From NCBI RefSeq assembly GCF_056746865.1, contig NZ_CM163382.1: a DNA stretch of 64,000 bases; one strand, given 5' to 3'. Under the pieces are notes generated by a model that saw only the letters and a program-made list of their open reading frames with translations, was not told the origin of the DNA and searched no databases. A program made the position numbers and the translations under genes. This document shows positions 2,260 to 61,650 of the stretch, one piece after another (position 1 is the first letter of the stretch; every line of letters begins with the position of its first letter).

Positions 2260-3209
<950 letters not shown>

Positions 3210-3235
<26 letters not shown>

Positions 3236-4064: not shown

Positions 4065-4228
4065 CATTGATGTGCAGATATTAGAATTGTCGTAATGTTA
4101 TATACATGGCGTATTTTATTCTTACTGGTTCTACACATGTTAATCGCATCTGATTGATCAGTTCACCTTAATAAGTTTAATAAATCGTACTGCACATAGT
4201 ACAGTACGAAGGTAGCTATATAATTGAT

Positions 4229-4867
4229 TTACATGAAGAATGGCTTATCGCCATCAGTCCCGGGCTGATTGATGCCTATATTCTCACCAATGTGTTTCTC
4301 AGGTTTATCGATGATATCTGTAATTAATGCTGCGACACTCTTACGTGATACGATCGTACCTTTGAATGGTTCATTGCGTGAGGTAAGCTCATAATCAATA
4401 ATATCTTCATCGGTCAGCCAGGCAGGGCGAAGAATTGTATATTCCAGTCCAGAAGCCTCAATTGCATCCGCAGCCCTGCGGAATGGTTTTAGGGGCTCAC
4501 CAATAACTGCATTATTCCATTCGCCAAATTTTCCTGGAACTTCATCATAAATACCGAGGGAAAGAACAAAGATCAGACGTTTAACATCACAGGCTTTCAT
4601 CGCAGCGATCACTGAATTTGCCTGAATATCTAAATCTTCCCCCGTAAGGTTGGCATACACAACATCCTGTCCCTGCATGGCCTGCTTCAGTGCCGCATGA
4701 TTCAGTACATCCCCCATAATAATCTTGCTATTAGTTGGATAGGGTTTGTGGATTTTTGCTGGCTGACGGGCAAATAAAGTTTGTTTAATGGTTTGTTTAT
4801 CTGCCAGTTGATTAATCACATGGCGGGCTATCTGACCGCCAGCACCAAGAATCAGTACATTTTTCAT
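4229..4867 (-). CDS. ymjC: NAD(P)-binding NmrA/SDR-like oxidoreductase, 212 aa, uninterrupted
   Basis: N-terminal Rossmann motif ILGAGGQIARHV; position between mpaA and ycjY; symbol assigned by synteny and is less certain than the product class. Confidence 0.7.
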   Translation of the reverse strand: MKNVLILGAGGQIARHVINQLADKQTIKQTLFARQPAKIHKPYPTNSKIIMGDVLNHAALKQAMQGQDVVYANLTGEDLDIQANSVIAAMKACDVKRLIFVLSLGIYDEVPGKFGEWNNAVIGEPLKPFRRAADAIEASGLEYTILRPAWLTDEDIIDYELTSRNEPFKGTIVSRKSVAALITDIIDKPEKHIGENIGINQPGTDGDKPFFM

Positions 4868-18455: not shown

Positions 18456-18784
18456 AACTGCATAAAAAAATAGAGTCTGTCGACATCCGCCAGACTCTAC
18501 AGTACACACAGCAGTGCATCCGCGTCTTAAATCCGGCATGGTCTCCTCTGCGCCGGTGACTGTGTTATAACGGTTTTAACCTTTAGTTGCCAATTTTCTT
18601 CAGTGACAGATTTCACGAAAATATAAGTTACATTATTAATATCGTGAATGAATAATCATGCATAAGCATTTTGCTTAAAATATCGGCAATATTTGGAACT
18701 TATTACTGGAAATTTGGGTAATACGTTGTTGGACCGACCCGGTCTGGTTATCATATCGCGCTCTTAATTGCGGGAGGATGTAAC

Positions 18785-21934: not shown

Positions 21935-22056
21935 GCAGGTGAATGCAACGTCAAGCGATGGGCGTTGCGCTCCATATTGTCTTACTTCCTTTTTTGAATT
22001 ACTGCATAGCACAATTGATTCGTACGACGCCGACTTTGATGAGTCGGCTTTTTTTT
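21935..22056 (+). ncRNA. fnrS: FnrS small regulatory RNA
   Basis: sequence gcaggtgaatgcaacgtcaagcgatgggcg...cgccgactttgatgagtcggcttttttttt matches FnrS as I recall it, with an intrinsic terminator at the 3' end. Confidence 0.88.
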
Positions 22057-23819: not shown

Positions 23820-24755
23820 TTATTTCACTTCAACCACATTCAGTCGTAACTCATCCAACTGATTTTCATCTTCTTCAGGCTGCCAACCCGCCGGTTGTAG
23901 AGGGATCTCTTCGCGATCAAACGCCAGATCACCCCCGTTAACCACTTCAGAACCGTGGGTAATGCCTTTGAAATCGAACAGGTTGGTATCGCACAGATGC
24001 GACGGCACCACATTCTGCATCGCGCTGAACATCGTCTCGATACGCCCCGGATAACGTTTATCCCAGTCACGCAACATGTCAGCAATCACCTGACGTTGCA
24101 GGTTAGGCTGTGAACCGCACAGGTTGCACGGAATAATCGGGAACGCTTTTGCATCGGCAAAGCGCTGAATATCTTTCTCGCGGCAGTAGGCCAGAGGGCG
24201 AATCACGATATGTTTGCCATCATCGCTCATCAGTTTCGGAGGCATACCTTTCATCTTGCCGCCGTAGAACATATTTAAGAACAACGTTTGCAGGATATCG
24301 TCACGATGGTGACCCAGCGCGATCTTCGTCGCTCCCAGTTCCGTTGCGGTACGATAAAGGATACCGCGACGAAGACGAGAACACAGTGAGCAAGTGGTTT
24401 TGCCCTCCGGAATCTTCTCTTTCACGATACCGTAAGTGTTCTCTTCAACAATCTTGTACTCAACGCCCAGCTTTTCAAGATACTCGGGCAGAACGTGTTC
24501 CGGGAAGCCCGGTTGCTTTTGATCGAGGTTAACAGCCACCAGCGAAAAATTGATTGGCGCGCTTTGCTGCAAATTGCGCAGAATTTCCAGCATGGTATAG
24601 CTGTCTTTACCCCCGGAGAGGCAAACCATGATGCGATCGCCTTCTTCAATCATATTGAAGTCAGCAATGGCTTCGCCCACGTTACGACGCAGACGTTTTT
24701 GTAATTTGTTCAGGTTGTATTGTTCTTTCTTACTAATTTCTTGATTTTGCGACAT
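23820..24755 (-). CDS. ttcA: tRNA 2-thiocytidine(32) synthetase TtcA, 311 aa
   Basis: PP-loop SGGKDS and CxxC motifs; synteny. Confidence 0.92.
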
Positions 24756-25505: not shown

Positions 25506-26639
25506 TTAGAACTGATAAACCAGACCTAAAGCGACAATATCATCGGTAGAGATGCCATTGGCAGCGTAGAAGCTGTCATCTTCATCCAACAGGTTGATTT
25601 TATAGTCAACGTAGGTGGACATATTTTTGTTGAAATAGTAAGTCGCGCCAACATCGGCGTATTTAACCAGATCTTTATCATCAACACCTGCCGGGTTGTC
25701 TGCACCACCGGCAGCGTGCAGGTCACGGCCTTTAGACATCAGGAAAGAGACTGCCGGACGCAGACCAAAATCAAACTGGTACTGTGCAGTAACTTCAAAG
25801 TTCTGGGTTTTGTTAGCAACAGCATAATCGCTGTCGCCAAACGGGGTCATATTACGCGTTTCTGAATACATGGTTGCCAGGTAAATATTGTTAGCATCGT
25901 ATTTTAGCCCAGCAGTCCACGCGTCTGCTTTATCACCACCCGCCGCAGTATGGTTAACCTGGTCATTGGTGCGGTCAGAAGAGGTGTATGCCGCACCAGC
26001 GCTAAAGCCCATGCCTAAATCATATGTTGTGGAAAGACCCCAGCCGTCACCGTTTTCATGGCGAACATCACGTCCGTTGTTGGTGCCTTCCTGACCATTA
26101 CTGGCACCTTCGTTGTTACCTTGATACTGCACCGCGAAGTTCAGACCATTTACCAGACCGAAGAAATCAGTATTACGATAAGTCGCGACGCCATTGGCAC
26201 GACCAGTCATAAAGTTGTCTGCATTGGTATAAGAGTCACCGCCAAATTCAGGCAGCATATCGGTCCAGCCTTCGATGTCGTACATTACGCCATAATTACG
26301 TCCGTAATCGAAAGAACCGTAATCTGCAAATTTCAATCCGGCAAATGCCAGACGGGTCCATGACTGGTTTTTTGAAGATTCAGTGTTGTTTGCCTGAATA
26401 TTGTATTCCCATTGACCGTAGCCAGTAAGTTGATCGTTAATTTGGGTTTCGCCTTTAAAACCCAGACGCGCATAGCTCTGGTCGCCATCTTTCGCTGAAT
26501 TATCAGAAAAATAATGTAGTCCATCAACTTTGCCATACAGATCTAATTTGTTGCCGTCTTTATTATAAACTTCGGCTGCATGTGCAGCACCTGCGGCGAG
26601 CAGGGTAGGAATTAAAAATGCCAGTACTTTGCTTTTCAT
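25506..26639 (-). CDS. ompN: Outer membrane porin OmpN (OmpC/OmpF family), 377 aa
   Basis: signal peptide [21 protein letters not shown], general-porin signature, C-terminal ...LGLVYQF. Confidence 0.9.
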
Positions 26640-26867
26640 TGAATAAATCCTTTAGTTATTTTATTTGCCTTTTCATCCCCATTTTGGGGAGTGAAAACAT
26701 CCTAAAGGAGAAGTTCCGTTAGCCGATAAATATCATTTGTTACGCCTTAAGTAAAACCTTAATCAAATAATTCTACGGAAATGATGATAAGTTTGGTGAA
26801 TATATTATTGGCGACATATACAAAATAAAAATTATACATTTAAATAGTGATGCGTTATTCTTCGCGG

Positions 26868-26972
26868 GTTATATGCCTTTATTGTCACAAAGATTATTTT
26901 CTGTTGGACCCTTGTTACTGTTTATCCAACAAATAATGAGACAAGCCCGAACAGTCGTCCGGGCTTTTTTTT
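26868..26972 (+). ncRNA. micC: MicC small RNA (ompC-targeting, Hfq-dependent)
   Basis: 5' end gttatatgcctttattgtcaca and 3' terminator aagcccgaacagtcgtccgggctttttttt; divergent from ompN as expected. Confidence 0.8.
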
Positions 26973-27000
26973 AGAATTGGATAATCCTTATCCAGTGCAT

Positions 27001-30000
27001 TTAATCGGTGTTGCTTTTTTCCGCTTTTCCGGCCATTTGTGCCAGGAAGTCATAGCGTTTTTGCAAATCAGCTGCAGCATCTTTCCATAACTGTTCTGCC
27101 ACTTCTGGCTGCTGCGAATTCAGACGACGGAAACGTTGCTCATGAAGTAACGTTTCTTCCAGTGCTTCTGACGGCGGGCGTGAATCCAGCGCCAGCGGCA
27201 GTTTGCCTTCATCGGCACGACGAGGATCGAAGCGATATAGCGGCCAGAAGCCGGTAGCAGTGAGTTGGCGCATCTGGTCGTGGCTGAGAGCCAGATCGTA
27301 ACCATGCTCTTCACACGGGCTATAAGCGATGATCAGCGATGGTCCCGGATACGCTTCCGCTTCCTGAATTGCTTTCACCGTCTGGTTCAGCTGCGCGCCG
27401 AGAGAAATCTGCGCCACATAAACATGGCCGTACATCATCATACTGACGCCAAGATCTTTACGCGCTTTACGTTTGCCGTGCTCGCCAAACTTAGTTACTG
27501 CACCCAGCGGTGTCGCTTTTGACGCCTGACCACCGGTATTGGAATAGCATTGCGTATCCAGCACCAGAATGTTGACGTTTTCCGTCAAACTCAATACATG
27601 ATCCAGACCGCCAAAGCCGATATCGTAAGCCCAGCCGTCGCCACCAATCAGCCAGATTGATTTTTCTACCAGTGCATCTGCGTCACGTAGCAGTTCATGT
27701 GCTTCGGCAACATCGTTGAGTTGCTGGCGTAAAGCTGCAACCTGTTCACGACGAACCTCTGGCGTGGCGTCTGATTTCAACGCAGTCAGTAATTCCGCCG
27801 GGATTTTATCGGCAAATTGATCCAGCAGACGCAGTATGCGGACACGGTGTTGATCGACCGTCAGGCGGAAACCAAGGCCAAATTCGGCGTTATCTTCAAA
27901 CAGCGAGTTCGCCCATGCCGGTCCACGACCGTTGGCATCGGTAGTATACGGTGTAGAGGGCAGGTTACCGCCATAAATTGAAGAACAGCCGGTGGCGTTA
28001 GCGATCAACATCCGGTCGCCATAGAGCTGAGTCAGCAATTTAATATACGGCGTCTCGCCACAACCGGAGCAAGCACCTGAATATTCAAACAGAGGTGTAA
28101 TCAGCTGCGATGTACGAATATCAATACGTTCCAGTTTGCTACGGTCGATTTCTGGGAGGTTGAGGAAGAAATCGTAATTGATTTTCTCTTCTTCGACATG
28201 TTCCAGGCGCGACATCATATTGATGGCTTTAATCTCTGGATTCTGACGGTCTTTCGCCGGGCAAACTTCGACGCACAGGTTACAGCCGGTGCAATCTTCC
28301 GGTGCCACCTGCAAGACATATTTCTGCCCGCGCATATCACGCGATTTTACATCCAGCGAATGCAGGCTGGCAGGGGCGTTTTCCATCGCTTCAGGCGGTA
28401 CCACTTTTGCGCGAATAGCTGAGTGTGGGCAAGCAGCGACGCAGTGGTTACATTGGGTACAGAGTTCCTCTTTCCAGATGGGGATCTCTTCGGCGATATT
28501 GCGTTTTTCCCAGCGCGTGGTGCCCATCGGCCAGGTGCCGTCTGGCGGCAGCGCCGAAACGGGGAGGGCATCACCAAGCCCGGCGAGCATCGCCGCGGTT
28601 ACGGTTTTCACGAAATCAGGGGCGGCATCGGAAACCACTGGCGGTCGATTGGCGCTGTGCGGATTAACCGGCTGCAGCGGAACTTCTTCTACGGATTCAC
28701 GTGCCAGCGCCAGAGCCTGCCAGTTGCGTTCCACCAGATCCTGACCTTTGCTACTGTAACTTTTGGCAATCGCACCCTGCAATTCTGCGAGGGCGCTATC
28801 GCCAGGCAGAATTTGCGTAAGATGGAAAAAAGCCATCTGCATGACGGTATTAATACGGGCCGCCAGACCACATTCGCGGGCGATTTTCGCCGCGTTAATC
28901 ACATAGAAGCGCGCTTTTTTCTGGTTTAACACGGCCTGAACTTCCTGCGGCAAGCGCGACCATACTTCATCTGCGCTGTACGGCGTGTTGAGCAGGAAAA
29001 TGCCGCCAGGTTTTAAACGTTCAGCCATCTGATATTTATCGATAAACTGCAACTGGTGGCAGCCAACAAAATCAGCCTGGGAAATGAGATAAGCGGAACG
29101 AATCGGCTGCTCGCTCACGCGAAGGTGAGAAACCGTCAGGCCGCCCGCCTTTTTGGAGTCGTAAACAAAATAGCCCTGTGCGTACCACGGCGTGGAATTA
29201 CCGATAATCTTGATATTGTTTTTGGTCGCGGAAACGCTGCCATCACTACCAAGGCCATAAAACAAGGCTTCAAGTTTCGCCGAGTTTGGCAGGGTGTTTT
29301 CCGGCAACGGCAGTGACAGATTGGTCACATCATCGTAAATACCAACCGTAAAGCGCGCTTTCGGTTTAGCCGCGTTGAGCTCGGCAAATACCGCCAGTAC
29401 ACAGTCCGGGCCAAATTCTTTGGATGAAAGACCATAGCGCCCACCAATGACACGGGGCAGGGTTTCGCGCTCGCCATTATTAAAGGCTTCTGCCAGTGCG
29501 GTCATCACATCCAGATAGAGCGGTTCTGCCTGGGCACCGGGTTCTTTGGTTCTGTCCAGTACCGCCACGCTGCGTACGGATCCCGGCAGAGCTTGTAGCA
29601 AGTGTTTGGCGGAGAAGGGACGGTACAGGCGAACTTTCAGCACGCCGACTTTTTCGCCACGGGTTAGCAATTCATCAACCACTTCTTCACAGGTGCCAAT
29701 GGCAGAGCCCATCAGGATAATCACCCGTTCCGCTTGCGGATGCCCGTAATACTCAAACGGCTGATACTGACGACCTGTCGCGGCAGCGAAATCATTCATC
29801 GCCTGTTCAACATGGTCATAGACCGCGTTGTACCATGGGTTGGTGGCTTCGCGAGACTGGAAATAAGTGTCAGGATTGGCGGACGTACCGCGGATCACCG
29901 GATGTTCCGGGTTGAGCGCCCGGGCGCGATGAGCATCAATTTCGGCCTGCGGCATCAGTTCAAGAATAGTGTCATCGGCCAGCGGGACAATTTTATTGAT

Positions 30001-30525
30001 CTCGTGGGACGTGCGGAAACCATCAAAGAAATGAATAAATGGCACGCGACTCTTCAGCGTCGCGATGTGCGAAATAAGAGCAAAGTCTTGCGCTTCCTGG
30101 ACGTTTGCTGCACACAACATCGCGCAACCCGTCTGGCGCACCGCCATAACGTCGGAATGATCGCCAAAAATAGAGAGTGCATGTGTGGCAACGGTACGTG
30201 CCGCTACATGCAGGACAAATGGCGTCAGTTCGCCTGCCAGTTTGTACAGCGTCGGGATCATCAGCAGCAAACCCTGCGATGACGTAAACGATGTTGAAAG
30301 GGCACCCGTCTGCAAAGCGCCATGCACGGTAGCGATAGCACCCGCTTCCGACTGCATTTCAACCACGCGTGGTGTGTCTCCCCAGACGTTTTTCAAGCCG
30401 TTTCCGGCCCATGCATCAGCCTGTTCTGCCATCGTGGAACTGGGGGTAATAGGGTAGATGGCGATAACTTCACTGGTGCGAAACGCCACCGAAGCAACCG
30501 CGCCATTACCGTCAATAGTAATCAT
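27001..30525 (-). CDS. ydbK: Pyruvate:flavodoxin/ferredoxin oxidoreductase, 1174 aa
   Basis: PFOR domain order with 4Fe-4S ferredoxin cysteine clusters (CTQCNHCVAACP, CTGCNLCVEVCP) and TPP-binding domain. Confidence 0.93.
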   Translation of the reverse strand: MITIDGNGAVASVAFRTSEVIAIYPITPSSTMAEQADAWAGNGLKNVWGDTPRVVEMQSEAGAIATVHGALQTGALSTSFTSSQGLLLMIPTLYKLAGELTPFVLHVAARTVATHALSIFGDHSDVMAVRQTGCAMLCAANVQEAQDFALISHIATLKSRVPFIHFFDGFRTSHEINKIVPLADDTILELMPQAEIDAHRARALNPEHPVIRGTSANPDTYFQSREATNPWYNAVYDHVEQAMNDFAAATGRQYQPFEYYGHPQAERVIILMGSAIGTCEEVVDELLTRGEKVGVLKVRLYRPFSAKHLLQALPGSVRSVAVLDRTKEPGAQAEPLYLDVMTALAEAFNNGERETLPRVIGGRYGLSSKEFGPDCVLAVFAELNAAKPKARFTVGIYDDVTNLSLPLPENTLPNSAKLEALFYGLGSDGSVSATKNNIKIIGNSTPWYAQGYFVYDSKKAGGLTVSHLRVSEQPIRSAYLISQADFVGCHQLQFIDKYQMAERLKPGGIFLLNTPYSADEVWSRLPQEVQAVLNQKKARFYVINAAKIARECGLAARINTVMQMAFFHLTQILPGDSALAELQGAIAKSYSSKGQDLVERNWQALALARESVEEVPLQPVNPHSANRPPVVSDAAPDFVKTVTAAMLAGLGDALPVSALPPDGTWPMGTTRWEKRNIAEEIPIWKEELCTQCNHCVAACPHSAIRAKVVPPEAMENAPASLHSLDVKSRDMRGQKYVLQVAPEDCTGCNLCVEVCPAKDRQNPEIKAINMMSRLEHVEEEKINYDFFLNLPEIDRSKLERIDIRTSQLITPLFEYSGACSGCGETPYIKLLTQLYGDRMLIANATGCSSIYGGNLPSTPYTTDANGRGPAWANSLFEDNAEFGLGFRLTVDQHRVRILRLLDQFADKIPAELLTALKSDATPEVRREQVAALRQQLNDVAEAHELLRDADALVEKSIWLIGGDGWAYDIGFGGLDHVLSLTENVNILVLDTQCYSNTGGQASKATPLGAVTKFGEHGKRKARKDLGVSMMMYGHVYVAQISLGAQLNQTVKAIQEAEAYPGPSLIIAYSPCEEHGYDLALSHDQMRQLTATGFWPLYRFDPRRADEGKLPLALDSRPPSEALEETLLHEQRFRRLNSQQPEVAEQLWKDAAADLQKRYDFLAQMAGKAEKSNTD

Positions 30526-32791: not shown

Positions 32792-35431
32792 ATGCTGGGT
32801 AAATATAAAGCCGTTCTCGCGCTGTTATTACTGATTATTCTTGTGCCGTTGACGCTGCTGATGACGCTCGGCTTGTGGGTTCCCACGCTGGCGGGCATCT
32901 GGCTACCGCTCGGGACACGTATTGCATTAGATGAAAGCCCACGCATTACGCGTAAAGGTTTAATCATCCCCGATCTCCGTTATCTGGTGGGAGATTGTCA
33001 GCTTGCGCATATCACCAACGCCAGCCTTTCACATCCCAGCCGCTGGTTATTGAACGTCGGTACGGTAGAACTTGATTCTGCTTGTCTGGCGAAATTGCCG
33101 CAGACGGAGCAATCGCCAGCTGCTCCAAAAACCCTCGCGCAGTGGCAGGCCATGTTGCCTAACACCTGGATCAATATCGATAAACTGATTTTTTCTCCCT
33201 GGCAGGAATGGCAGGGAAAACTCTCTCTCGCATTAACCTCCGATATCCAGCAACTGCGTTATCAGGGCGAAAAAGTTAAATTTCAAGGCCAGCTGAAAGG
33301 GCAACAACTTACAGTCAGCGAACTGGATGTCGTCGCGTTTGAAAATCAGCCGCCGGTTAAACTGGTGGGGGAATTTACTATGCCGCTAGTGCCGGATGGA
33401 CTTCCTGTAAGTGGTCATGCTACTGCGACGTTAAACTTGCCGCAGGAGCCTTCACTGGTGGATGCCGAGCTGGACTGGCAGGAAAATAGCGGGCAATTGA
33501 TTGTGCTGGCACGGGATAATGGCGATCCGTTGCTCGATCTGCCGTGGCAAATTACTCGCCAACAATTGACTGTAAGCGATGGTCGCTGGAGCTGGCCGTA
33601 TGCAGGTTTTCCTTTGAGTGGCAGACTGGGTGTCAAAGTCGACAACTGGCAGGCAGGGCTCGAGAACGCTCTGGTCAGCGGACGACTGAGTGTGCTGACC
33701 CAGGGGCAAGCGGGTAAGGGCAACGCGGTGCTTAATTTTGGCCCTGGAAAATTAAGCATGGATAACAGCCAGCTGCCTTTGCAGCTGACCGGTGAAGCGA
33801 AACAGGCGGATCTCATTTTATATGCCCGCTTACCTGCGCAGCTAAGCGGAAGTCTGACTGACCCAACGCTGGCCTTTGAGCCAGGCGCGTTATTACGTTC
33901 GAAGGGAAGAGTCATCGATTCGCTGGACATCGATGAAATCCGCTGGCCTTTAGCGGGTGTAAAAGTCACCCAACGTGGTGTTGACGGACGTTTGCAGGCC
34001 ATTTTGCAGGCGCATGAAAATGAACTGGGCGATTTCGTGCTGCATATGGATGGGCTGGCGAATGATTTTCTCCCTGACGCTGGCCGCTGGCAGTGGCGCT
34101 ACTGGGGAAAAGGGAGTTTTACACCGATGAATGCCACCTGGGATGTTGCAGGAAAAGGTGAGTGGCATGACAGCACGATTACGCTGACCGATCTCTCCAC
34201 CGGTTTCGACCAGTTACAATACGGTACGATGACGGTAGAAAAGCCGCGATTAATTCTCGACAAGCCCGTCGTCTGGGTACGTGACGCACAGCATCCCTCC
34301 TTTAGCGGCGCGCTGTCACTGGACGCCGGGCAAACGCTGTTCACTGGCGGCAGTGTGTTACCGCCATCAACCTTAAAATTTAGCGTCGATGGACGCGATC
34401 CGACGTATTTCCTATATAAAGGCGATTTACATGCTGGTGAGATTGGCCCGGTTCGGGTAAATGGTCGCTGGGACGGTATTCGTCTGCGCGGTAACGCCTG
34501 GTGGCCTAAACAATCACTGACCGTATTCCAGCCGCTGGTGCCACCCGACTGGAAGATGAACTTACGCGATGGCGAACTGTATGCTCAGGTCGCATTTTCT
34601 GCTGCGCCTGAACAAGGATTCCGCGCGGGAGGGCACGGTGTGTTGAAAGGCGGTAGTGCCTGGATGCCAGATAATCAGGTTAACGGTGTCGATTTTGTCC
34701 TGCCTTTCCGTTTTGCCGATGGAGCCTGGCATCTGGGGACTCGCGGCCCCGTTACGTTGCGAATTGCCGAAGTGATTAATCTGGTGACAGCGAAAAATAT
34801 TACGGCTGATTTGCAAGGGCGCTATCCGTGGACAGAAGAAGAACCATTGTTGTTGACTGATGTTAGCGTCGATGTGTTAGGCGGTAACGTGCTGATGAAA
34901 CAATTACGTATGCCGCAACATGACCCGGCGCTGTTGCGGCTGAATAATCTCTCATCCAGCGAACTGGTTAGCGCCGTCAATCCGAAACAATTCGCCATGT
35001 CCGGGGCATTTAGTGGTGCATTGCCGTTATGGCTAAACAACGAAAAATGGATAGTGAAAGATGGCTGGCTGGCAAATAGCGGGCCAATGACCTTGCGGCT
35101 GGATAAAGACACCGCAGATGCGGTGGTGAAAGGCAATATGACTGCGGGTTCAGCAATTAACTGGTTGCGCTATATGGAAATTAGCCGTTCATCGACAAAT
35201 ATTAATTTAGATAATCTCGGTTTATTAACCATGCAGGCCAACATTACAGGTACCAGTCGCGTTGATGGTAAAAGCGGTACGGTAAACCTTAATTACCATC
35301 ATGAAGAGAATATTTTTACGCTGTGGCGCAGTTTACGCTTTGGCGATAATCTCCAGGCATGGTTGGAGCAGAACGCACGTCTGCCGGGAAATGACTGTCC
35401 GCAAGGAAAAGAGTGTGAGGAAAAACAATGA
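32792..35431 (+). CDS. ydbH: AsmA-like (TamB/YhdP paralogue) envelope protein YdbH, 879 aa
   Basis: N-terminal TM anchor followed by long beta-rich repeat region; stop overlaps ynbE start (ATGA). Confidence 0.88.
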   Translation: MLGKYKAVLALLLLIILVPLTLLMTLGLWVPTLAGIWLPLGTRIALDESPRITRKGLIIPDLRYLVGDCQLAHITNASLSHPSRWLLNVGTVELDSACLAKLPQTEQSPAAPKTLAQWQAMLPNTWINIDKLIFSPWQEWQGKLSLALTSDIQQLRYQGEKVKFQGQLKGQQLTVSELDVVAFENQPPVKLVGEFTMPLVPDGLPVSGHATATLNLPQEPSLVDAELDWQENSGQLIVLARDNGDPLLDLPWQITRQQLTVSDGRWSWPYAGFPLSGRLGVKVDNWQAGLENALVSGRLSVLTQGQAGKGNAVLNFGPGKLSMDNSQLPLQLTGEAKQADLILYARLPAQLSGSLTDPTLAFEPGALLRSKGRVIDSLDIDEIRWPLAGVKVTQRGVDGRLQAILQAHENELGDFVLHMDGLANDFLPDAGRWQWRYWGKGSFTPMNATWDVAGKGEWHDSTITLTDLSTGFDQLQYGTMTVEKPRLILDKPVVWVRDAQHPSFSGALSLDAGQTLFTGGSVLPPSTLKFSVDGRDPTYFLYKGDLHAGEIGPVRVNGRWDGIRLRGNAWWPKQSLTVFQPLVPPDWKMNLRDGELYAQVAFSAAPEQGFRAGGHGVLKGGSAWMPDNQVNGVDFVLPFRFADGAWHLGTRGPVTLRIAEVINLVTAKNITADLQGRYPWTEEEPLLLTDVSVDVLGGNVLMKQLRMPQHDPALLRLNNLSSSELVSAVNPKQFAMSGAFSGALPLWLNNEKWIVKDGWLANSGPMTLRLDKDTADAVVKGNMTAGSAINWLRYMEISRSSTNINLDNLGLLTMQANITGTSRVDGKSGTVNLNYHHEENIFTLWRSLRFGDNLQAWLEQNARLPGNDCPQGKECEEKQ

Positions 35432-35617: not shown

Positions 35618-35944
35618 ATGATGAAGAAAACATTACTTCTTTGTGCGTTTCTTGTTGGGCTGGTAAGCAGCAATGTAATGGCATTGACTCTGGATGAAGC
35701 CAGAACTCAGGGGCGGGTAGGTGAAACATTTTATGGTTATCTGGTTGCGCTGAAAACAGATGCTGAAACGCTGGAATTAGTAAAAGATATTAATGAAGCT
35801 CGTAATCTGAGTTACCAACAATTGGCAAAGCAAAATAATGTATCCACTGATGAGATAGCAAAATTGGCAGGGCAAAAAATGGTTGCTCGCGCGAAGCCGG
35901 GAGAATATGTGCAGGGGATTAATGGAAAATGGCTGCAAAAATAA
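35618..35944 (+). CDS. ydbL: Periplasmic protein YdbL (DUF1318), 108 aa
   Basis: ORF 35540..35944; start set to internal Met (MMKKTLLLCAFLVGLVSSNVMA signal peptide) for 108 aa. Confidence 0.8.
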   Translation: MMKKTLLLCAFLVGLVSSNVMALTLDEARTQGRVGETFYGYLVALKTDAETLELVKDINEARNLSYQQLAKQNNVSTDEIAKLAGQKMVARAKPGEYVQGINGKWLQK

Positions 35945-36369
35945 TTTCATATCCATATCCATATTCATTATGTTGCGCCATTTTGTGAATATTTAAGGGA
36001 AAATAAGTTCTGGACTAAGGCGATTTTTATTTGCATCTATTGAATTGTTATAAGTCCGATATAGGGGAGTGTCTATTTTATTTTTGATGGTTTTTTATGT
36101 GTAATTATAATTGTAAGAAATGTTATATTATTTAGTATTTACTGGGTGTATTGTTTTTTAATGCCTTAACCTCTTATTAAATATCATTTAAGTTGAATTG
36201 ACTTCAACGGATAGTATAAATTATTAGAACATCACATATTTTTGATTGGTTCTTTATTTATATTTCTTTCGTGAATATAAACACCAATCATGGTCTTGCG
36301 TTCCGTCAAAAAGGCCCGCTTTTATTTTTGTCGACTGGCGTGCAACGCTCTATTTCTAAGGAAATATAA

Positions 36370-39300
36370 ATGCAAAGGAAAAAATTGTTGTCTGTGTGTG
36401 TGGCGATGGCATTGAGCGGTCAGACATGGGCAACTGATACATCGATCCTGGATATAACTGATGACACCCGGAAATCCAGCAAGATCACATGTCCGGCGAA
36501 TATTCATTCTATTAGCAAAGAGCAGTTAGCTAAATTACCATCAGAATGTCGGGATTCTGATGACAGCGCCGTAATGAGCTGGACTGCAGCTGGCCTGGTT
36601 GCAGTCGTTACAGGAGCCGCGGTGATGGCGCTTAATGATGGTGATCATCATGACAGTTCAGAACCAGATGACGGTGGTGATACACCTGTTCCACCAGATG
36701 ACGGTGGTGATACACCTGTTCCACCAGATGACGGTGGTGATACACCTGTTCCTCCAGATGACGGTGGCGATACACCAGTTCCACCAGACGATGGTGGCGA
36801 TACACCAGTTCCACCAGACGACGGTGGTGATACACCTGTTCCTCCAGATGACGGTGGCGACGTCACTCCACCAAAAGAGCCCAAAATCTTCAATAACAGT
36901 GTCACATTCGACGAAGACAAAGGCACGCTGCAAATTCGCAATGCCACCTTTACCTACAGCAAAAACAGTGATGGAAGTTACACCCTGACGGCTGAAGATG
37001 GCCGAACCTCTATTGTGCAGGGCTGGGATGTCGACACCGATGCCAATACGGTAGAAATTACCGGCGTGAATAACCTTGGCGGTATGACGTGGTGTTACGG
37101 TAAAGACGGCATTATCTATATCACCAAAACCGTCGGCGCAACGGTGGATGACCCCGCGAACAGCAACGTATTTAACCTCAGCGATGCGGTGCTCACCGAC
37201 CAGGGCGGTAATGCCGCGCTGAATGGCGCGACGGTGATTGAAATAAACGGCAGCAGGATCGCCCTTAATAACGACGGTGATATTTCTGCTACGGGAAAAG
37301 ATTCTGTGGTTGTGGCGATAACCGGAAACGATATTACCGTTAACAATAACGGCCATATGGTTGTCGATGGCGGCACAGCGGGCGTGGTTAACGGCGATCG
37401 TGCAATCCTGAATAACCGCGGTGATGCAGTGATCACTAACGGCGGCACGGGTGTCATTGTGACGGGTGACAACGCGGTTATCAACAACATGGGGCAAAGC
37501 GATATTGATGGCGACAACTCGGTATCGGTAAAAGTTGCAGGAAACGCAACCAGAATCAGAATGGAAGGCGGGATCAATGTCAGCGGTGGCGCGCATGGCA
37601 TTGATGCCACCGGTGATAATAACGAAGTCAGCAACAAGGGCAACATTTCGGTGGTGGATGCGCATTCCACGGGCGTGCTGCTGAACGGCGATCGCGCGTC
37701 ATTCATTAATATGGGTGATATTAACGTTAGCGGAGGTGCAGCGGACGATCACTCTAATGGTGTGCAGATCAACGGCGATAACAGTACCTTTATCAACGTT
37801 GGAGATTTAAATGCCGACGACAGGGCGACCGGGGTGAAAATTAACGGTGACGCCAGCGACATTGCCCTGGCCGGGGCGATGCATGTCGGGGATTTTTCCA
37901 CCGGGCTGGAGGTGATGGGTAAAAACAATGATCTGTCGTTGTCCACCAATATGATGGATGTCACCGGGAAACAGTCCACCGGGGTGACCATTACAGGTGA
38001 TGATAATACCATTGATATCACCGGTGATATGGTCGTTGATCAAAACTCTGTCGGGGCGAAAATTGTCGGCGATCGCGTTTCGTTGCAACAGAAAGGTGAT
38101 ATTACCGTTAACGGTGCGGGGCACGGCGTTGAAGTCAGCGGTAGTAAGACGACAATCAATAATCAGGGCAAACTGACCGTAAAAGATCAAGACTCAATCG
38201 GTATCGTTATCACCGGAGATGACGCGCAATTTACTACCGTGGGTGAGATTGATGTCTCGCTGAACGGTACGGGTGTTGCGATCAGCGGCGATCGTGAACA
38301 AGTGAATTTGAGCGGTGATATAAATGTCATTCAGGAGCGTGACGGCAGCGGTACTTTCCAGGGCGGAACGGGCATCAGCATAATGAGCAACGACAGCAGT
38401 ATGCTGTTGACGGGAAACATTAATGTGACGTCCAGTATGGGGGACCAACCGTCCACCTCACCCCAGTCGTTAACCGGCGTTACCATCGAGGGGGAAAACA
38501 ATACTGTCGATCTGGAAGGCGACATCAATATTACTGTCGATTCGGATTACCTGGGGGATGAAAACAGTCTTTACGGCGTGGTTGTTTTGGGTACAAACAA
38601 CACCATCAATCTCGATGGTGGTATCAATATCTCTGGTGATAGTGGTGGACATACTATCAAAGGTGTGCAGGTAACAGGAAATAATACCGTCAATATAAGT
38701 GGTCATTCCGTAATGAATACCCGACAGATATTGGGATCCTTCTCTCTGATTTCGGTGGCTGATGGCGGGAATGTCATATTTGATGAAAACGCGATAACCG
38801 AGATTCAGAGTTCAGTGAGAGATAGTGACTATCTTTTTTTCGATGCATCGTTAATTGTTGCTACGGGAAACCAGTCTGTTATTCAGAACAACGGCATTAT
38901 TAATACAACCGATGCTCAAGAATTAATGATGGCGAATTCGGGGGCGCAAGTTGTCAATGCCGGGGTGATTAATATCAGGCCAGATGCTGAATCACACACT
39001 TTCTTTGCTGGAATGATGGCAAGAAGCGATGACTCGCAGGCAAAAAATGCCTCCGGAGGAACAATCAATCTGACATCCATTACCCGGCCTTTTAGCAGCG
39101 GAGGATTTAACGAGCGCCCGATCAAATGGTATCACAACACGGGTTATGCCTTGTTGGCCAGTAATTACGGATCGGTAATCAATGAAACAGGAGCAACCAT
39201 TAATTTGCATGGTGCAGGAACCTATGGTGTTTCCGCTTCAAAAGGAACGGCGACCAATGCGGGCGAGATAAATGTCGACGGCTTTGTTCCAATAGTAGAT

Positions 39301-42189
39301 GAAAACGGTAATATTATTGATGAAACTTACTGGCAGACCAATTCCGTATATCTGATGGGGGGCGGGATGTTGGCAGGTTCAACGGATACCGGCGACGGTG
39401 ATGCTAAAGCGGTGAATACCGGTATCATCAACGTTAAGAATGAAGGCTTCGGCATGCTGGCGATGAACGGTGGGACCGTTGTAAACCAAGGGACAATCAA
39501 TCTCACCGCCGATGAGGGCGTGACGAAGCAGCAAGATAACCAACTGTTCGCGATGGGAGCCATTCAGGGTGGTCTGGCGATTAATGACCAGGATGGGGTT
39601 ATTAATATTAACACTGATATTGGCCAGGCGTTTTATAAAGATGGCACCGGCACCATTCTCAACTATGGAAAAATTAATCTTTTCGGTAATCCAATGGATG
39701 AAAGTGATTCCCACATTGGCGTTACGCCGGATGACAAAGATATTCTCAGTGAGCTGTCTGGCAGCGGCGAGAGCATCAGTAAAACTACAACTAGCGACGG
39801 TTTTATCGCAGTTAATAACCTGGCAAACTATGGCGACGAAACGCTTAACGGCGACGTTATAGCAAATGGCTGGATATTCAACCAACCTGATGCCAGCCTA
39901 ACAATCAACGGCGAACTGAGCGTAAACCAGGGGTTGGAAAACAGTGGTCACCTGGATGTTGACAGCATTAACAGCAAAACCACGATATATAACCGTGAAA
40001 CAGGGAGCATAACAACCGATCTGCTGACGTTGAATGGCGCGGTTTCCTTCTTTAATGAAGGCGAATTTAATGGTTCAATTACCGGAGACAGCTACCAACA
40101 GAATGTGGTGAATACCGATGAAATGACGGTGACCGAAGATGGCCACTCACTCGTCAACGGAAGTTTCCTGTTCTTCAATGAGGCTGGCGCGACCCTGACA
40201 AATAGCGGTAATGCGGTAACGGGCGGGGAAAACGCGATTATTCATGTAACCAGAACCAGTGATTCTGTTTCGCAGGTTAACCGTGGCACCATCACGGCCA
40301 CAAATGGCTATAGCGCAATCAAAACTGAAAATACTGGCTCGAACAGTAACGGGAAATGGATTTGGAATACGGAAACAGGAGTGATAAATGGTATTAATCC
40401 TGCTGCACCGTTGGTTGATTTAGGACGAGGTTATAACTTTGCTAACGCTGGCGTTATTAATGTTCAGGGCGATAATGCAGTGGGCATCAGTGGCGGCACA
40501 ACCAGCTATGTTGTCCAGTTGGTGAACAGTGGCATCATTAATGTGGGTACTGAGCAGGGGCAACTGGATGGAACCAACGGCGAAGGTTTAATTGGTATTA
40601 AGGGCAATGGTCGGGAAACGACAATTAATAACACGCAAACGGGTGTGATTAATGTCTATGCCGATAACTCCTGGGCGTTTGGTGGGCAAACGAAAGCCAT
40701 CATTAACAACGGTGAAATTAATCTGCTGTGTGACACCGGATGCGATATTTATGCTCCAGGAACGACGGGGGCGCAAAACGATCACAACGGTACTGCGGAT
40801 ATTACCGTACCAGAGGCATCAACCACGCCGCCACAAGGTAATGTTCCAACGCCACCTGTCGATTCAAATGCACCGCAACTGCTGAGCAACTATACCATTG
40901 GTACCAACAGCGACGGGAGTTCGGGTACGCTCAGCGCGAATAACCTGGTTATTGGCGACAACGTGAGTGTTAACGCCGGGTTTAGTGCAGGAACTGCGGA
41001 CACCACCGTTGTCGTTAACGATGTATTCAAAGGCGAAAACATCAGCGGTGTGGATAACATCGTTTCCTCTACTGTTGTCTGGAACGCTAAAGGCAGCACC
41101 GATGCCAGCGGCAACGTTGACGTCACTATGAGCAAAAACGCTTATACCGATGTGGCGACCGATGCTTCGGTGAATGACGTCGCGAAAGCACTGGATGCGG
41201 GTTACACCAACAACGAGCTGTATACCAGCCTGAACGTCGGCACGACTGCCGAACTGAACAGTGCCCTGAAACAGGTCAGCGGTAGCCAGGCGACCACGGT
41301 ATTCCGCGAAGCGCGCGTGCTAAGCAACCGCTTTAGCATGCTGGCGGATGCCGCACCGAAAGTGGGTAACGGTCTGGCGTTCAACGTTGTTGCGAAAGGC
41401 GATCCGCGCGCGGAGCTGGGGAACAATACCGAGTACGACATGCTGGCATTGCGTAAAACCATCGACCTGAGCGAAAGCCAGACGATGAGTCTGGAGTACG
41501 GTATCGCGCGCCTCGATGGCGACGGTGCGCAGAAAGCGGGTGATAATGGCGTTACAGGCGGTTATAGCCAGTTCTTTGGCCTGAAACATCAGATGTCCTT
41601 CGACAACGGCATGAACTGGAATAACGCATTGCGTTATGACGTTCACAACCTTGACAGCAGCCGTTCGATTGCATTTAGCAACACAAACAAAACGGCTGAT
41701 ACCGACGTGAAGCAGCAGTACCTGGAGTTCCGCAGCGAAGGGGCGAAGACTTTCGAACCGAGCGAAGGACTGAAGGTTACGCCATATGCGGGTGTTAAAC
41801 TGCGTCACACACTGGAAGGTGGCTATCAAGAGCGCAATGCCGGAGACTTTAACCTGAATATGAACAGTGGCAGCGAAACGGCGGTGGACAGCATCGTCGG
41901 GTTGAAACTGGATTACGCAGGTAAAGACGGCTGGAGCGCTAGCGCTACGCTGGAAGGCGGGCCGAACCTGAGCTACGCGAAGAGCCAGCGTACGGCAAGC
42001 CTGGCAGGCGCAGGCAGTCAGCACTTTAATGTCGATGACGGTCAGAAGGGCGGCGGCATCAACAGCCTGGCAAGCGTCGGCGTGAAGTACAGCAGCAAAG
42101 AAAGTTCGCTGAATCTGGATGCTTACCACTGGAAAGAGGACGGCATCAGCGATAAAGGCGTGATGCTGAACTTCAAGAAAACGTTCTAA
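36370..42189 (+). CDS. ydbA: Large autotransporter (type Va) adhesin-like protein, 1939 aa, uninterrupted
   Basis: signal peptide, six full DDGGDTPVPP decapeptide repeats, long Gly/Asn/Thr-rich beta-helix-like passenger, C-terminal approx 280-aa beta-barrel ending ...VMLNFKKTF. Confidence 0.85.
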   Translation: MQRKKLLSVCVAMALSGQTWATDTSILDITDDTRKSSKITCPANIHSISKEQLAKLPSECRDSDDSAVMSWTAAGLVAVVTGAAVMALNDGDHHDSSEPDDGGDTPVPPDDGGDTPVPPDDGGDTPVPPDDGGDTPVPPDDGGDTPVPPDDGGDTPVPPDDGGDVTPPKEPKIFNNSVTFDEDKGTLQIRNATFTYSKNSDGSYTLTAEDGRTSIVQGWDVDTDANTVEITGVNNLGGMTWCYGKDGIIYITKTVGATVDDPANSNVFNLSDAVLTDQGGNAALNGATVIEINGSRIALNNDGDISATGKDSVVVAITGNDITVNNNGHMVVDGGTAGVVNGDRAILNNRGDAVITNGGTGVIVTGDNAVINNMGQSDIDGDNSVSVKVAGNATRIRMEGGINVSGGAHGIDATGDNNEVSNKGNISVVDAHSTGVLLNGDRASFINMGDINVSGGAADDHSNGVQINGDNSTFINVGDLNADDRATGVKINGDASDIALAGAMHVGDFSTGLEVMGKNNDLSLSTNMMDVTGKQSTGVTITGDDNTIDITGDMVVDQNSVGAKIVGDRVSLQQKGDITVNGAGHGVEVSGSKTTINNQGKLTVKDQDSIGIVITGDDAQFTTVGEIDVSLNGTGVAISGDREQVNLSGDINVIQERDGSGTFQGGTGISIMSNDSSMLLTGNINVTSSMGDQPSTSPQSLTGVTIEGENNTVDLEGDINITVDSDYLGDENSLYGVVVLGTNNTINLDGGINISGDSGGHTIKGVQVTGNNTVNISGHSVMNTRQILGSFSLISVADGGNVIFDENAITEIQSSVRDSDYLFFDASLIVATGNQSVIQNNGIINTTDAQELMMANSGAQVVNAGVINIRPDAESHTFFAGMMARSDDSQAKNASGGTINLTSITRPFSSGGFNERPIKWYHNTGYALLASNYGSVINETGATINLHGAGTYGVSASKGTATNAGEINVDGFVPIVDENGNIIDETYWQTNSVYLMGGGMLAGSTDTGDGDAKAVNTGIINVKNEGFGMLAMNGGTVVNQGTINLTADEGVTKQQDNQLFAMGAIQGGLAINDQDGVININTDIGQAFYKDGTGTILNYGKINLFGNPMDESDSHIGVTPDDKDILSELSGSGESISKTTTSDGFIAVNNLANYGDETLNGDVIANGWIFNQPDASLTINGELSVNQGLENSGHLDVDSINSKTTIYNRETGSITTDLLTLNGAVSFFNEGEFNGSITGDSYQQNVVNTDEMTVTEDGHSLVNGSFLFFNEAGATLTNSGNAVTGGENAIIHVTRTSDSVSQVNRGTITATNGYSAIKTENTGSNSNGKWIWNTETGVINGINPAAPLVDLGRGYNFANAGVINVQGDNAVGISGGTTSYVVQLVNSGIINVGTEQGQLDGTNGEGLIGIKGNGRETTINNTQTGVINVYADNSWAFGGQTKAIINNGEINLLCDTGCDIYAPGTTGAQNDHNGTADITVPEASTTPPQGNVPTPPVDSNAPQLLSNYTIGTNSDGSSGTLSANNLVIGDNVSVNAGFSAGTADTTVVVNDVFKGENISGVDNIVSSTVVWNAKGSTDASGNVDVTMSKNAYTDVATDASVNDVAKALDAGYTNNELYTSLNVGTTAELNSALKQVSGSQATTVFREARVLSNRFSMLADAAPKVGNGLAFNVVAKGDPRAELGNNTEYDMLALRKTIDLSESQTMSLEYGIARLDGDGAQKAGDNGVTGGYSQFFGLKHQMSFDNGMNWNNALRYDVHNLDSSRSIAFSNTNKTADTDVKQQYLEFRSEGAKTFEPSEGLKVTPYAGVKLRHTLEGGYQERNAGDFNLNMNSGSETAVDSIVGLKLDYAGKDGWSASATLEGGPNLSYAKSQRTASLAGAGSQHFNVDDGQKGGGINSLASVGVKYSSKESSLNLDAYHWKEDGISDKGVMLNFKKTF
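36667..36870 (+). repeat. In-frame 30-bp tandem repeat array inside ydbA (six full units plus a degenerate seventh)
   Basis: gatgacggtggtgatacacctgttccacca repeated with synonymous variation; encodes DDGGDTPVPP. Confidence 0.9.
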
Positions 42190-45627: not shown

Positions 45628-45795
45628 ATAACAGCGTTATATTTTTAACTATTTGATTAATTGGGGATAATCATTCCTGACAGTGAGCCCCAGTACCTTG
45701 ATATATTCTGATTTTTTAATGAAGCGGCGTGTTGCGATATCTCTGCCAGGGCAATTGATGCACCATAGCGCAAACCGTATTATCAAGGATTGATA

Positions 45796-46401
45796 ATGAC
45801 GCTCTACCAGATAAAACCGCTCTTTCAGTCGCTGTTAAGGCCGACGATGTTTTGGCTTCATAAGCTGCAAGTGTCTGCAAATCAGATCACACTTGCCGCT
45901 TTGGCACTTTCTCTTCTCACCGGTTTGTTGTTGGCGTTGGTGCCATATCCTGGCATGTTTCTGCTATTGCCCATCGTGCTTTTTGTCCGTATGGCACTCA
46001 ATGCGCTGGATGGCATGATGGCGCGTGAGTGCAATCAGCAAACACGTCTTGGGGCGATTTTGAATGAAACAGGCGATGTTATTTCCGATATTGCGCTTTA
46101 TTTACCGTTTTTATTTTTACCGGAAAGTAACGCATCACTCGTAATACTCATGTTATTTTGCACCATATTGACCGAGTTTTGCGGTTTACTCGCGCAGACG
46201 ATTAACGGTATTCGTAGTTATGTCGGTCCATTTGGCAAAAGCGATCGCGCGTTAATATTTGGTCTGTGGGGGCTGGCCATTGCCATTTATCCACAATGGA
46301 TGCAATGGAATAATTTTTTATGGAGCATTGCTTCAATTCTGCTTCTCTGGACTGCGATTAATCGTTGTCGGAGTGTGCTTTTTATGAGTGCTGAAAGATA
46401 A
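45796..46401 (+). CDS. ynbA: CDP-alcohol phosphatidyltransferase family membrane protein, 201 aa
   Basis: CDP-OH transferase-like motif (ALDGMMAR...GAILNETGDVISDIALY); first gene of a four-gene cluster. Confidence 0.8.
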   Translation: MTLYQIKPLFQSLLRPTMFWLHKLQVSANQITLAALALSLLTGLLLALVPYPGMFLLLPIVLFVRMALNALDGMMARECNQQTRLGAILNETGDVISDIALYLPFLFLPESNASLVILMLFCTILTEFCGLLAQTINGIRSYVGPFGKSDRALIFGLWGLAIAIYPQWMQWNNFLWSIASILLLWTAINRCRSVLFMSAER

Positions 46402-55197: not shown

Positions 55198-55243
55198 TTA
55201 TGAATTCTGAAAAATAGCAAGGGAGATACTCCTTACGTGCTTA

Positions 55244-55543
55244 TTACAAATCTGCTTGATGAGGACGATATACTGGATACCAAATATTACTGCAACAAAG
55301 AACTTCACTGTTTTTGTCAGAAATAAAAATCGTAATTTCCATATCATCCCAACCTTTAACATCTCTGACTACCATCCATAATGGAATATCAAGGCCGTAT
55401 GATTTCATACCATCAGGAAGAAATTTAATAGCAGTGATTTTGTATGCCAGCGAGCCATTAAGATTATACTTTTTACAATATTTTTCTGCTATCGAATTCA
55501 CTTTGTTTTCAGTAAGAATAGGAGCGATTATTTTATTATTCAT
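55244..55543 (-). CDS. Hypothetical small protein (99 aa), AT-rich, translationally coupled to the upstream SUKH-like gene
   Basis: start ATG overlaps upstream stop (ATGA); GGAG 4 nt upstream; translation MNNKIIAPILTENKVNSIAEKYCKKYNLNGSLAYKITAIKFLPDGMKSYGLDIP...; no family recognised. Confidence 0.5.
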   Translation of the reverse strand: MNNKIIAPILTENKVNSIAEKYCKKYNLNGSLAYKITAIKFLPDGMKSYGLDIPLWMVVRDVKGWDDMEITIFISDKNSEVLCCSNIWYPVYRPHQADL

Positions 55544-56034
55544 GAGACTCCACATTGCTGTAAATAAAGAATAATTTCAACTTGCATTTCCACTAACTCA
55601 CCAAAATTTTCAAAGCATAACTCACAAGGGAAATCACCGACATCATCGGAAAATATACCAAAATCATGAATGAGAATATAAATTTTTAGGCTGTTGCGGT
55701 CAAGAAAAGCTACACTCCCATCGCCAAAACTGCCAACAGGAAAAGGATCAATGTTGTTCAATAATGGATATTCTTTTTTATAATCTTCCCATTGTTGCAA
55801 AAATAGAGGGTAATATCTGTCCAGATCCTTCAAAGTATAAATTTGAGGATCGACAAAATGACATGCGCCAAAATGAGACAATAACTGCCGATAGTCTTTT
55901 GGAATATGTGTTGCGTATTTATCCTCAAATAAAAGAAGGTTATCTTCAGTTTCCGGAGCGGTTACGCAACCTGTAAGTCCTGTTGTTTTTACGGCAGGCC
56001 AGGCGGTTTCTAAAATTTGAAACATTTTTTCCAT
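55540..56034 (-). CDS. SUKH/Smi1-Knr4-like putative immunity protein (164 aa)
   Basis: motifs resembling SUKH-1: ...HIPKDYRQLLSHFGACHF... and ...PFPVGSFGDGSVAFLDRNSLKIYILIHD...; AT-rich relative to flanks. Confidence 0.55.
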   Translation of the reverse strand: MEKMFQILETAWPAVKTTGLTGCVTAPETEDNLLLFEDKYATHIPKDYRQLLSHFGACHFVDPQIYTLKDLDRYYPLFLQQWEDYKKEYPLLNNIDPFPVGSFGDGSVAFLDRNSLKIYILIHDFGIFSDDVGDFPCELCFENFGELVEMQVEIILYLQQCGVS

Positions 56035-56423
56035 GTATGTTTCTCGACATATAGTATTATGTTGATGAATAAAAAGGACAATTTGTCTCCTTAGACGGAT
56101 AGTAGTTTATAGCTCAGGCCAGATATTATTCAATTTAAATTTAAGGATTTCCCATTAATGAGCGTGTTGCAAATGTTCCCATTGATTGAGAAATATAAGA
56201 ATGAATATTTCATAAATATCACACCAACTTATCTGTCACTTAAAAATGATAGAACATTATGTTATTGATGTTTTATCAACAGTTTCTCCGCAAATACAGT
56301 ATGACTAAAACCAGTGTCTGGTTCGCGATGGCGCGATAGAAAAAGGATCATCTTCCTTTCAGAGTGCTCCGCTTCTCACTATTATCTCACGCAGTATTCT
56401 TAAAGGAACGATAAGGAGGAACC

Positions 56424-60622: not shown

Positions 60623-60866
60623 AGGATATTTAAAGAAAACGCCTGTACTAAAACCGACCCGTGGTACAGGCGAAGAATACGGGTCTACATCGGAAGCGCC
60701 TATTATATTTATTTGTATGACAAATAAAACCATAATCCTTATCCATACGTCCATCTGGCTTATTTTTAATCAATTCACCCGATCTTTGATCTCATCAACG
60801 GTATCAAAATAAACCAGCGTATAACGTTCAAATCGAACATAAGATTCGATAAACCATGGAGGTTAT

Positions 60867-61111: not shown

Positions 61112-61319
<208 letters not shown>

Positions 61320-61650
61320 TCGTTGGCCTCGGTTGATAGAAATATCGGTCGGGGCCTTCGTCTTTCTGATTCCCGGTTAGCCTGAAAACAGAAAGTCTCA
61401 GGCACCCGCAGGCATCCTATGAGTTTTCCTTAGGGACGAAAATAATCACTTCACGAAATTGCGTGCTGTTTTCCAGAATTTTTTGTCATTCGGTTTAGCC
61501 ATTCGTTACTCTCTTCATTCCAATAGCATTAATTTTCTCTGCAATAATTGTTGTAAAAATGTGACGCAAAGAGGTTTTTGGTCATAAGTAATTACCGTCA
61601 AGTGCCGATGACTTTCTATCAGGAGTAAACCTGGACGAGAGACAACGGTA

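Follow-up and report, generated by a model that had tools for sequence, protein, structure and literature searches.

The stretch at positions 26868-26972 of the window, by which we mean the whole 64,000 nucleotides analysed from contig NZ_CM163382.1 (assembly GCF_056746865.1), is the known small RNA MicC of E. coli, present as a natural minority allele. We put the probability at about 0.88 that the window-type micC is a functional, natural allele of this Hfq-dependent, ompC-repressing sRNA and one of two old haplotypes that recombine with each other. The variation of micC is ordinary intraspecies allelic variation, with a pattern that resembles a switched intergenic region (IGR). Taking into account that the determinants of ompC pairing and of Hfq binding are both intact, the window-type MicC would most likely be fully functional and work as it does in K-12; its expression, its dependence on Hfq and its repression of OmpC are what the conserved sequence elements lead us to expect.

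The assignment to the MicC family was examined with the Rfam covariance model RF00121, whose curated gathering score is 90 bits. The window gave a match at 26865-26980 (+) with 105.7 bits (E=1.7e-15), covering the full length of the model (positions 1-123), and the K-12 MicC scored 125.0 bits with the same model; the window allele is thus about 19 bits lower and both lie above the threshold. As K-12 reference we used micC of MG1655 (NC_000913.3, 1437121-1437231, equivalent to 3122-3232 of our locus L001), which is annotated as "small regulatory RNA MicC". The gene order ompN-micC-ydbK is common to the window and K-12, in the same orientation, and the names ompN and nifJ were taken from strain 118UI, where this region is identical to the window. 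Covariance score, seed complementarity, a terminator with oligo-U, the central stem and synteny all agree with membership in the family. The features of the locus are collected in Table 1. Other RNAs of the window that exceeded their Rfam gathering scores were FnrS (21935-22052, +, 134.8 bits), McaS (18462-18557, -, 117.0 bits), RydC (60633-60696, -, 92.5 bits), and the Sok antitoxin RNA (61256-61407, -, 111.5 bits), the last presumably corresponding to the hokB/sokB locus, which adjoins rydC.

Table 1: Features of the micC locus in the window and their divergence from K-12.
Feature	Position	Strand	Divergence from K-12	Basis and remarks
ompN, porin gene, left neighbour, divergent from micC	25506..26639	-	1.5%	377-aa ORF; ompN in the 118UI annotation; synteny with K-12
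ompN-side IGR			4.3%	
micC promoter region, divergent haplotype block	26780..26867	+	21.6%	19 substitutions in 88 nt
Putative -35 hexamer, TTATAC	26832..26837	+		Read relative to the annotated +1; conservation
Putative -10 hexamer, TATTCT	26856..26861	+		-12 to -7 from the 5' end annotated in K-12; 18-nt spacer to the putative -35
MicC sRNA gene, window-type allele, 105 nt	26868..26972	+		5' end by alignment to the annotated micC start of K-12; 3' end is the end of the U-run
Seed, ompC-pairing region (nt 1-22)	26868..26889	+	0%	No differences
Variable centre: U-rich linker, 7-bp stem, 16-nt loop	26890..26941	+	23.1% + indel	12 substitutions and a 5-nt deletion
Central stem, 5' arm (nt 35-41), UGUUGGA	26902..26908	+		RNAalifold consensus (18 taxa); in the centroid fold
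Central stem, 3' arm (nt 58-64), UCCAACA	26925..26931	+		RNAalifold consensus (18 taxa); in the centroid fold
Rho-independent terminator hairpin (nt 76-99) and U8	26943..26972	+	0%	Identical to K-12 bar one U; hairpin in MFE and centroid folds
ydbK/nifJ, pyruvate:flavodoxin oxidoreductase, right neighbour, convergent with micC	27001..30525	-	2.4-2.8%	1174-aa ORF; nifJ in 118UI, ydbK in K-12; 2.8% refers to the first 1,160 nt

The original prediction had described the first 22 nt or so and the terminator hairpin as matching MicC and the middle of the RNA as unlike the K-12 sequence. Pairwise alignment with K-12 micC, which did not give identity, bore out each of these points: nucleotides 1-22 and the terminator hairpin are the same in both, and the non-identity of the RNA body is located in the centre, plus one U of the tail. 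The central string quoted at that time is present at 26889-26941. In K-12 numbering the twelve substitutions are G23A, U25G, U26A, G41A, A49C, C53U, C54U, A59U, U62A, U70A, A75U, and A76G; they are accompanied by a deletion of 5 nt in the loop, and the tail is U8 in the window and U9 in K-12, so that the RNA measures 105 and 111 nt, respectively. The suggestion of strain or species divergence holds at the level of the strain, as the flanks are 97-98% identical to K-12 and two micC haplotypes exist in E. coli.

MicC has been described to pair with the 5' region of ompC, blocking translation initiation (bioRxiv 10.64898/2026.07.27.741068), and to be a class I sRNA that is bound by the proximal face of Hfq via its 3' oligo-U (PMC4911921). 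Nucleotides 1-20 were invariant in 18/18 aligned enterobacterial sequences. Considering that ompC is outside the window, complementarity was read against the K-12 ompC leader, where AAUAAAGGCAUAUAAC is the exact reverse complement of MicC nt 1-16 (GUUAUAUGCCUUUAUU). The 36-nt ompC site was identical in 5,364 of the 5,426 E. coli genomes, from which it follows that at least about 439 of the 501 carriers of the window-type allele (~88%) must have it. The 5' end of this allele would therewith bind the ompC leader immediately before the ribosome-binding site and repress the translation of OmpC, and the U-tail of the terminator would provide the binding to the proximal face of Hfq.

In every enterobacterial taxon that we recovered (Citrobacter, Salmonella, Klebsiella, and Escherichia), the centre of MicC is variable in both sequence and length, with the 7-bp stem being kept. 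In the RNAalifold consensus of the 18 taxa this stem presented compensatory changes at both ends, two-sided in three pairs, and the closing pair G41-U of K-12 is replaced by A41-U58 in the window allele. The pairs of the terminator were invariant across the 18 taxa, and the hairpin sequence GACAAGCCCGAACAGUCGUCCGGGC followed by the U-run is that of K-12. A simple scanner made no terminator call in 26640-27000, which is probably due to the A83/C92 mismatch of the stem, common to K-12.

The promoter hexamers were assigned visually, guided by conservation and by the 5' end annotated in K-12. The stretch AAAATTATAC at the putative -35 is invariant in all the Escherichia lineages and in Salmonella arizonae, and TATTCT is identical in the window, K-12, and all the outgroup Escherichia. 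The differences from K-12 are located in the spacer, in one discriminator base (26862, T instead of G), and upstream of about -50. A consensus promoter and terminator scan of 26640-27000 made no call; this null result is uninformative because the thresholds were strict and K-12 shares both the hexamers and the stem mismatch. A 184-nt fragment is known to drive a micC-lacZ fusion in K-12 and to respond to depletion of H-NS and of sigma-E (PMC5745476), and all the promoter differences of the window fall within that fragment. In another study, the micC promoter of six isolates showed no differences from the comparator strain XQ13 (PMC7177473). On the whole, the window allele keeps all that the mechanism requires: the putative -35 and -10, the +1, the 22-nt seed, a linker rich in U, the central stem, and a terminator ending in a U-tail. 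Its changes are confined to parts that vary freely across Enterobacteriaceae, namely, the spacer of the promoter and what lies upstream of it, the loop of the central hairpin, and the flanks of the stem.

A key aspect of the locus is how deep and how local its divergence is. Over a 6.8-kb alignment with K-12 there were about 2 mismatches per 100 bp, except at 26800-26993, with 29 mismatches and 6 gap columns. Promoter and centre together carried 31 substitutions in 140 nt (22%), and the flanking ompN and ydbK differed by 2.2% overall and by 5.9% at third codon positions, the block being 3.8 times the latter. The binomial probability of 31 differences in 140 was 3e-22 at the 2.2% rate and 1e-10 at the 5.9% rate, and that of finding no change in the 53 nt of seed plus terminator at the rate of the block was 2e-6. 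When K-12 was compared with E. whittamii, E1V33, and E69, promoter plus centre differed by 17-26% and ydbK by about 10-11%; at 21.6-23.1%, the two E. coli haplotypes are therefore as far apart here as Escherichia species are.

The direction of the changes was assigned using four outgroup Escherichia lineages. In the promoter, 9 changes were derived in K-12 and 6 in the window, with 4 ambiguous, and these counts point to a deep split. Most changes of the RNA centre arose on the window-type branch, namely, 9 of the 12 substitutions and the deletion, and three sites, U70 among them, changed on the K-12 branch. The divergence of the micC block is unusual and not unique in the window: across the 53 kb alignable to K-12 (2.6% divergent overall) it was among the three most divergent 150-nt windows. 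Two other local hotspots are comparable to it: one, at 45800-46049, was 86.8% identical over 250 nt and covers the ydbD-ynbA junction and the start of an ynbA-like ORF (45790-46401), and the other, at 35701-35942 (81.8% over 242 nt), is on the ydbL-side edge of the fea/paa indel.

The distribution of the allele in E. coli was bimodal. The search with the 105-nt RNA in 5,426 complete genomes returned 501 at ≥99% identity, 11 at 90-95%, and 4,900 at 80-90%, which gives about 501 of 5,412 complete genomes (~9%) with the window-type allele, about 4,900 with the K-12 type, and about 120 mosaics. The search with promoter and body together (171 nt) found 408 + 93 genomes at ≥95% and 124 at 80-90%. 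Across its roughly 500 complete genomes the window-type allele is nearly invariant. The 24 kb around micC are virtually the same as in a clone group to which 118UI, NMBU-W13E19, EC6868, and MS14387 belong; given that several chromosomes of this group are the closest matches of ST69 isolates (PMC7952442), the window, as judged from this similarity, probably comes from an ST69-like lineage.

The mosaics inform on the exchange between both haplotypes. WCHEC4533, an ST405 genome (PMC9037040), and PEC1020, both of this ST405 type and in the 80-90% class of the 171-nt search, combine the promoter and 5' centre of K-12 with the window-type 3' centre (CAAAUAAUGAG). Strain 64A:C, whose chromosome is mislabelled as a plasmid, has a K-12-type promoter and a window-type RNA body, the breakpoint being in the conserved seed region. 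These mosaics are reciprocal and their breakpoints lie in conserved islands, from which we conclude that the two micC haplotypes recombine within E. coli. It was also possible to see insertions of IS1 at the locus. In GF31 (NZ_CP172152.1; L004, ~668-1560) the body of MicC is interrupted by the element, with a target duplication of 9 bp (TGATTTTCC), and ompN carries a frameshift; in ETEC1748 (NZ_CP122719.1; L052, 1788-2500) and ETEC1701 it lies just upstream of the +1, where it takes the place of the promoter of a window-type micC, and ompN contains an internal stop.

Very divergent alleles of ompN also occur within E. coli. In the metagenome contig OJNQ01012117.1 (L071) the 3' half of ompN is 22% different from the window, with uspF, the IGR, micC, and ydbK within 0-1.6%, and in 2014C-3075 (L051) the gene at the ompN position has 1,119 nt and is called ompC by PGAP. 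The ompN-micC locus looks like a recombination hotspot.

We consider that the divergent block of about 160 bp would be one of two old micC haplotypes, reshuffled by homologous recombination. Switched IGRs, or horizontal regulatory switching, have already been described in E. coli (Piggy, PMC5890482, citing Oren et al. 2014). The block at 26780-26941 is ~78% identical to K-12 outside the seed, and a 401-nt query spanning the IGR gave ~90% to K-12-type genomes, which is borderline for the threshold of <90% used in PMC5890482. A literature search for a described micC dimorphism found no description, and in PMC3318445 micC appears only in a target table.

A donor outside E. coli was not found in the genome contig scan or in the plasmid, phage, and metagenome searches. 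The scan of species-representative contigs for the seed pattern yielded 45 loci, and none of the five non-K-12 Escherichia lineages recovered by it had the window-type centre; MOD1-EC7003, whose ydbK is ~5% from E. coli, has a K-12-type micC. The scan is incomplete and absence from it is not evidence of absence: K-12 contains the pattern, yet no standard E. coli was returned, nor was Salmonella enterica subsp. enterica, and E. albertii, E. fergusonii, and E. marmotae did not appear among the names of the records returned, some of which read only "E. coli" or "Escherichia sp.". A donor lineage may therefore lie outside the sample. About ten matches of the pattern fell in unrelated phyla (Bacteroidota, archaea, Spirochaetia, and others) and seem fortuitous for a pattern of 18 specified bases. 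As regards the RNA centre, its branch is long (25-31% to each of the Escherichia lineages sampled), and accelerated or adaptive change could account for this just as well as import.

An origin in mobile elements was rejected, as the plasmid and phage searches yielded no true mobile copy. The plasmid search returned only mislabelled chromosomes (4.8-4.9 Mb), chromosomal fragments, and weak matches to micC of Salmonella or Klebsiella, and the phage search a single record, with K-12-type sequence. This is the 35-kb record of Salmonella phage SPF_0923 (ON032529.1), which has the micC promoter and gene near its end (34025-34222), at 82.8% to the window, equal to the K-12-type matches of the plasmid search; we suspect packaged or contaminating host chromosomal DNA. 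In the metagenomes, a 22-mer specific for the centre was found in 13 contigs, all of them with E. coli flanks; the sole outlier, L071, differs in ompN only.

It could be argued that the window-type body, its promoter, or both change what MicC does and that the haplotypes are kept by selection, a reading that we consider unlikely. The change might be a freer seed, with faster and less Hfq-dependent annealing, altered stability or Hfq binding, altered transcriptional control, or a new target for the centre. The predicted cost of opening nt 1-12 suits the first of these forms, being 0.34 kcal/mol in the window and 2.7-3.0 in K-12, 2014C-3075, and MOD1-EC7003; in the MFE and centroid folds, the CAUAUAA of the K-12 type (nt 68-74) pairs with seed nt 2-8 (UUAUAUG), and the window has CAAAUAA. 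The observation of Wroblewska and Olejniczak that the own structure of Salmonella MicC is the main barrier to annealing in vitro (PMC4911921) makes this plausible. The site responsible, U70 versus A70, is derived on the K-12 branch. However, low opening costs are common to all but one of the other taxa (0.51 in the ST405-type mosaic and 0.1-0.9 in all others folded, except Superficieibacter, 2.3), so it is the K-12 type that is the outlier; besides, the folding ensembles are poorly defined (MFE frequency 1-2%, z about -2.3), and in vivo the structure of sRNAs is remodelled by Hfq. The 9 derived substitutions and the deletion within the 52-nt centre may also suggest a new function, but the centre is the least conserved part in every taxon and therefore gives no sign of a conserved second pairing site. 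The replacement of 21.6% of the promoter region, inside the fragment regulated through H-NS and sigma-E depletion, and the differences in micC expression between clinical lineages (PMC7177473) are compatible with altered control. Against the reading as a whole, two more hotspots of comparable divergence exist in the same 53 kb, so that such blocks are not peculiar to micC. The fullest version, an anciently diverged block of promoter and body that is kept and shuffled because the two forms regulate OmpC differently, seems to us quite improbable. If it were true, the K-12-type MicC, with its derived "anti-seed" CAUAUAA, would sequester its own seed and be more dependent on Hfq, and, in the ST69-like lineages and others of phylogroup D, the window-type MicC would leave its seed open and be driven by a rewired promoter; porin control would then be lineage-specific, with relevance to antibiotic permeability and serum resistance.

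Relaxed constraint or a pseudogene, with the central changes as early erosion of a decaying micC, is far less credible. The lower covariance score (105.7 against 125 bits), the 5-nt loop deletion, and a gene dispensable enough to have received IS1 in some strains (GF31, ETEC1748) fit with decay; nevertheless, the score is still above the curated threshold, the G-U closing pair has been improved to A-U, and the allele is almost invariant in about 500 genomes from many sources. Erosion would not spare the seed, terminator, central stem, -35, and -10, all of them intact (P=2e-6), and we rejected the pseudogene on account of these conserved elements and of the near-invariance of the allele. The original prediction had also allowed for a mistaken K-12 MicC sequence on its own side, a doubt that the alignment dispels by revealing a real difference. 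That there is nothing to explain, either because of such a mistake or because of a sequencing or assembly artefact in the window, is hardly conceivable, considering that the K-12 reference itself differs in the alignment and that hundreds of complete genomes of independent assembly, as well as metagenome contigs, contain the identical sequence; with the same RNA at ≥99% in the 501 complete E. coli genomes and its centre in the 13 metagenome contigs, the artefact was rejected. A functional natural allele, one of two old recombining haplotypes, is thus the reading that we adopt.

The window differs from K-12 in other respects as well. The gene ttcA is intact (23820-24755, -) and the cryptic prophage Rac, integrated at ttcA in K-12 (1411899-1434958), is absent, so that the order in the window goes from ttcA directly to uspF-ompN. 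The K-12 cluster feaR-feaB-tynA-paa is absent between ydbL and ydbA (window 35943-41073). The ORF at 36370-42189 (+) encodes an uninterrupted ydbA-like autotransporter of 1,939 aa, named BigA/YdbA autotransporter in the annotation of identical genomes, whose 5' 4.7 kb have almost no nucleotide match to the IS-disrupted ydbA pseudogene of K-12. Two further segments, 4065-4728 (~0.66 kb, near mpaA/ymjC) and 55213-56350 (~1.1 kb, between hrpA and ydcF), have no counterpart at the K-12 position, and the IS5F that K-12 has beside ynaI is absent from the window.

The porin regulator MicC is a textbook sRNA, and hundreds of public genomes already contain the allele described here. ST69 belongs to phylogroup D. 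Results obtained with MicC from K-12, UTI89, or ST131 may not hold quantitatively in ST69-like lineages. The body of K-12 MicC is the standard scaffold for synthetic sRNAs; the window allele would be a natural and shorter variant of this scaffold, with a predicted freer 5' end. The locus also illustrates how an sRNA gene evolves, with seed, terminator, and promoter hexamers as frozen islands in a block exchanged by recombination.

By comparison with MicC of K-12 (b4427; RF00121), the window allele has the same locus, orientation, nt 1-22, terminator hairpin, position of the central stem, and -35/-10 hexamers. They differ in that all 12 substitutions and the 5-nt deletion fall within nt 23-77, the central loop has 21 nt in K-12 and 16 in the window, the stem is closed by G-U in K-12 and by A-U in the window, the CAUAUAA complementary to seed nt 2-8 is present in K-12 and lost from the window allele, and 19 of the 88 promoter positions are different. 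With the MicC of other Enterobacteriaceae (Salmonella, Citrobacter, Klebsiella, and the Escherichia species and clades) it shares the invariant 20-nt 5' end, a variable centre with a stem of the GUUGG/CCAAC type, the invariant GACAAGCCCGAA...CGGGC-U(n) terminator, and the low predicted seed-opening energy seen in most taxa. What sets it apart is a centre close to none of them, at a distance of 25-31% from the Escherichia lineages sampled, and a terminator loop of the E. coli type (AGUC, with the A/C mismatch). Finally, like the switched IGRs (PMC5890482), the micC locus presents two divergent sequences at one position between the same conserved flanking genes, a divergence much greater than that of the flanks, and shuffling by recombination; in contrast to them, the micC switch covers part of the IGR, includes the body of an sRNA, and has conserved islands, namely, the seed, the terminator, and the promoter hexamers, embedded in it.
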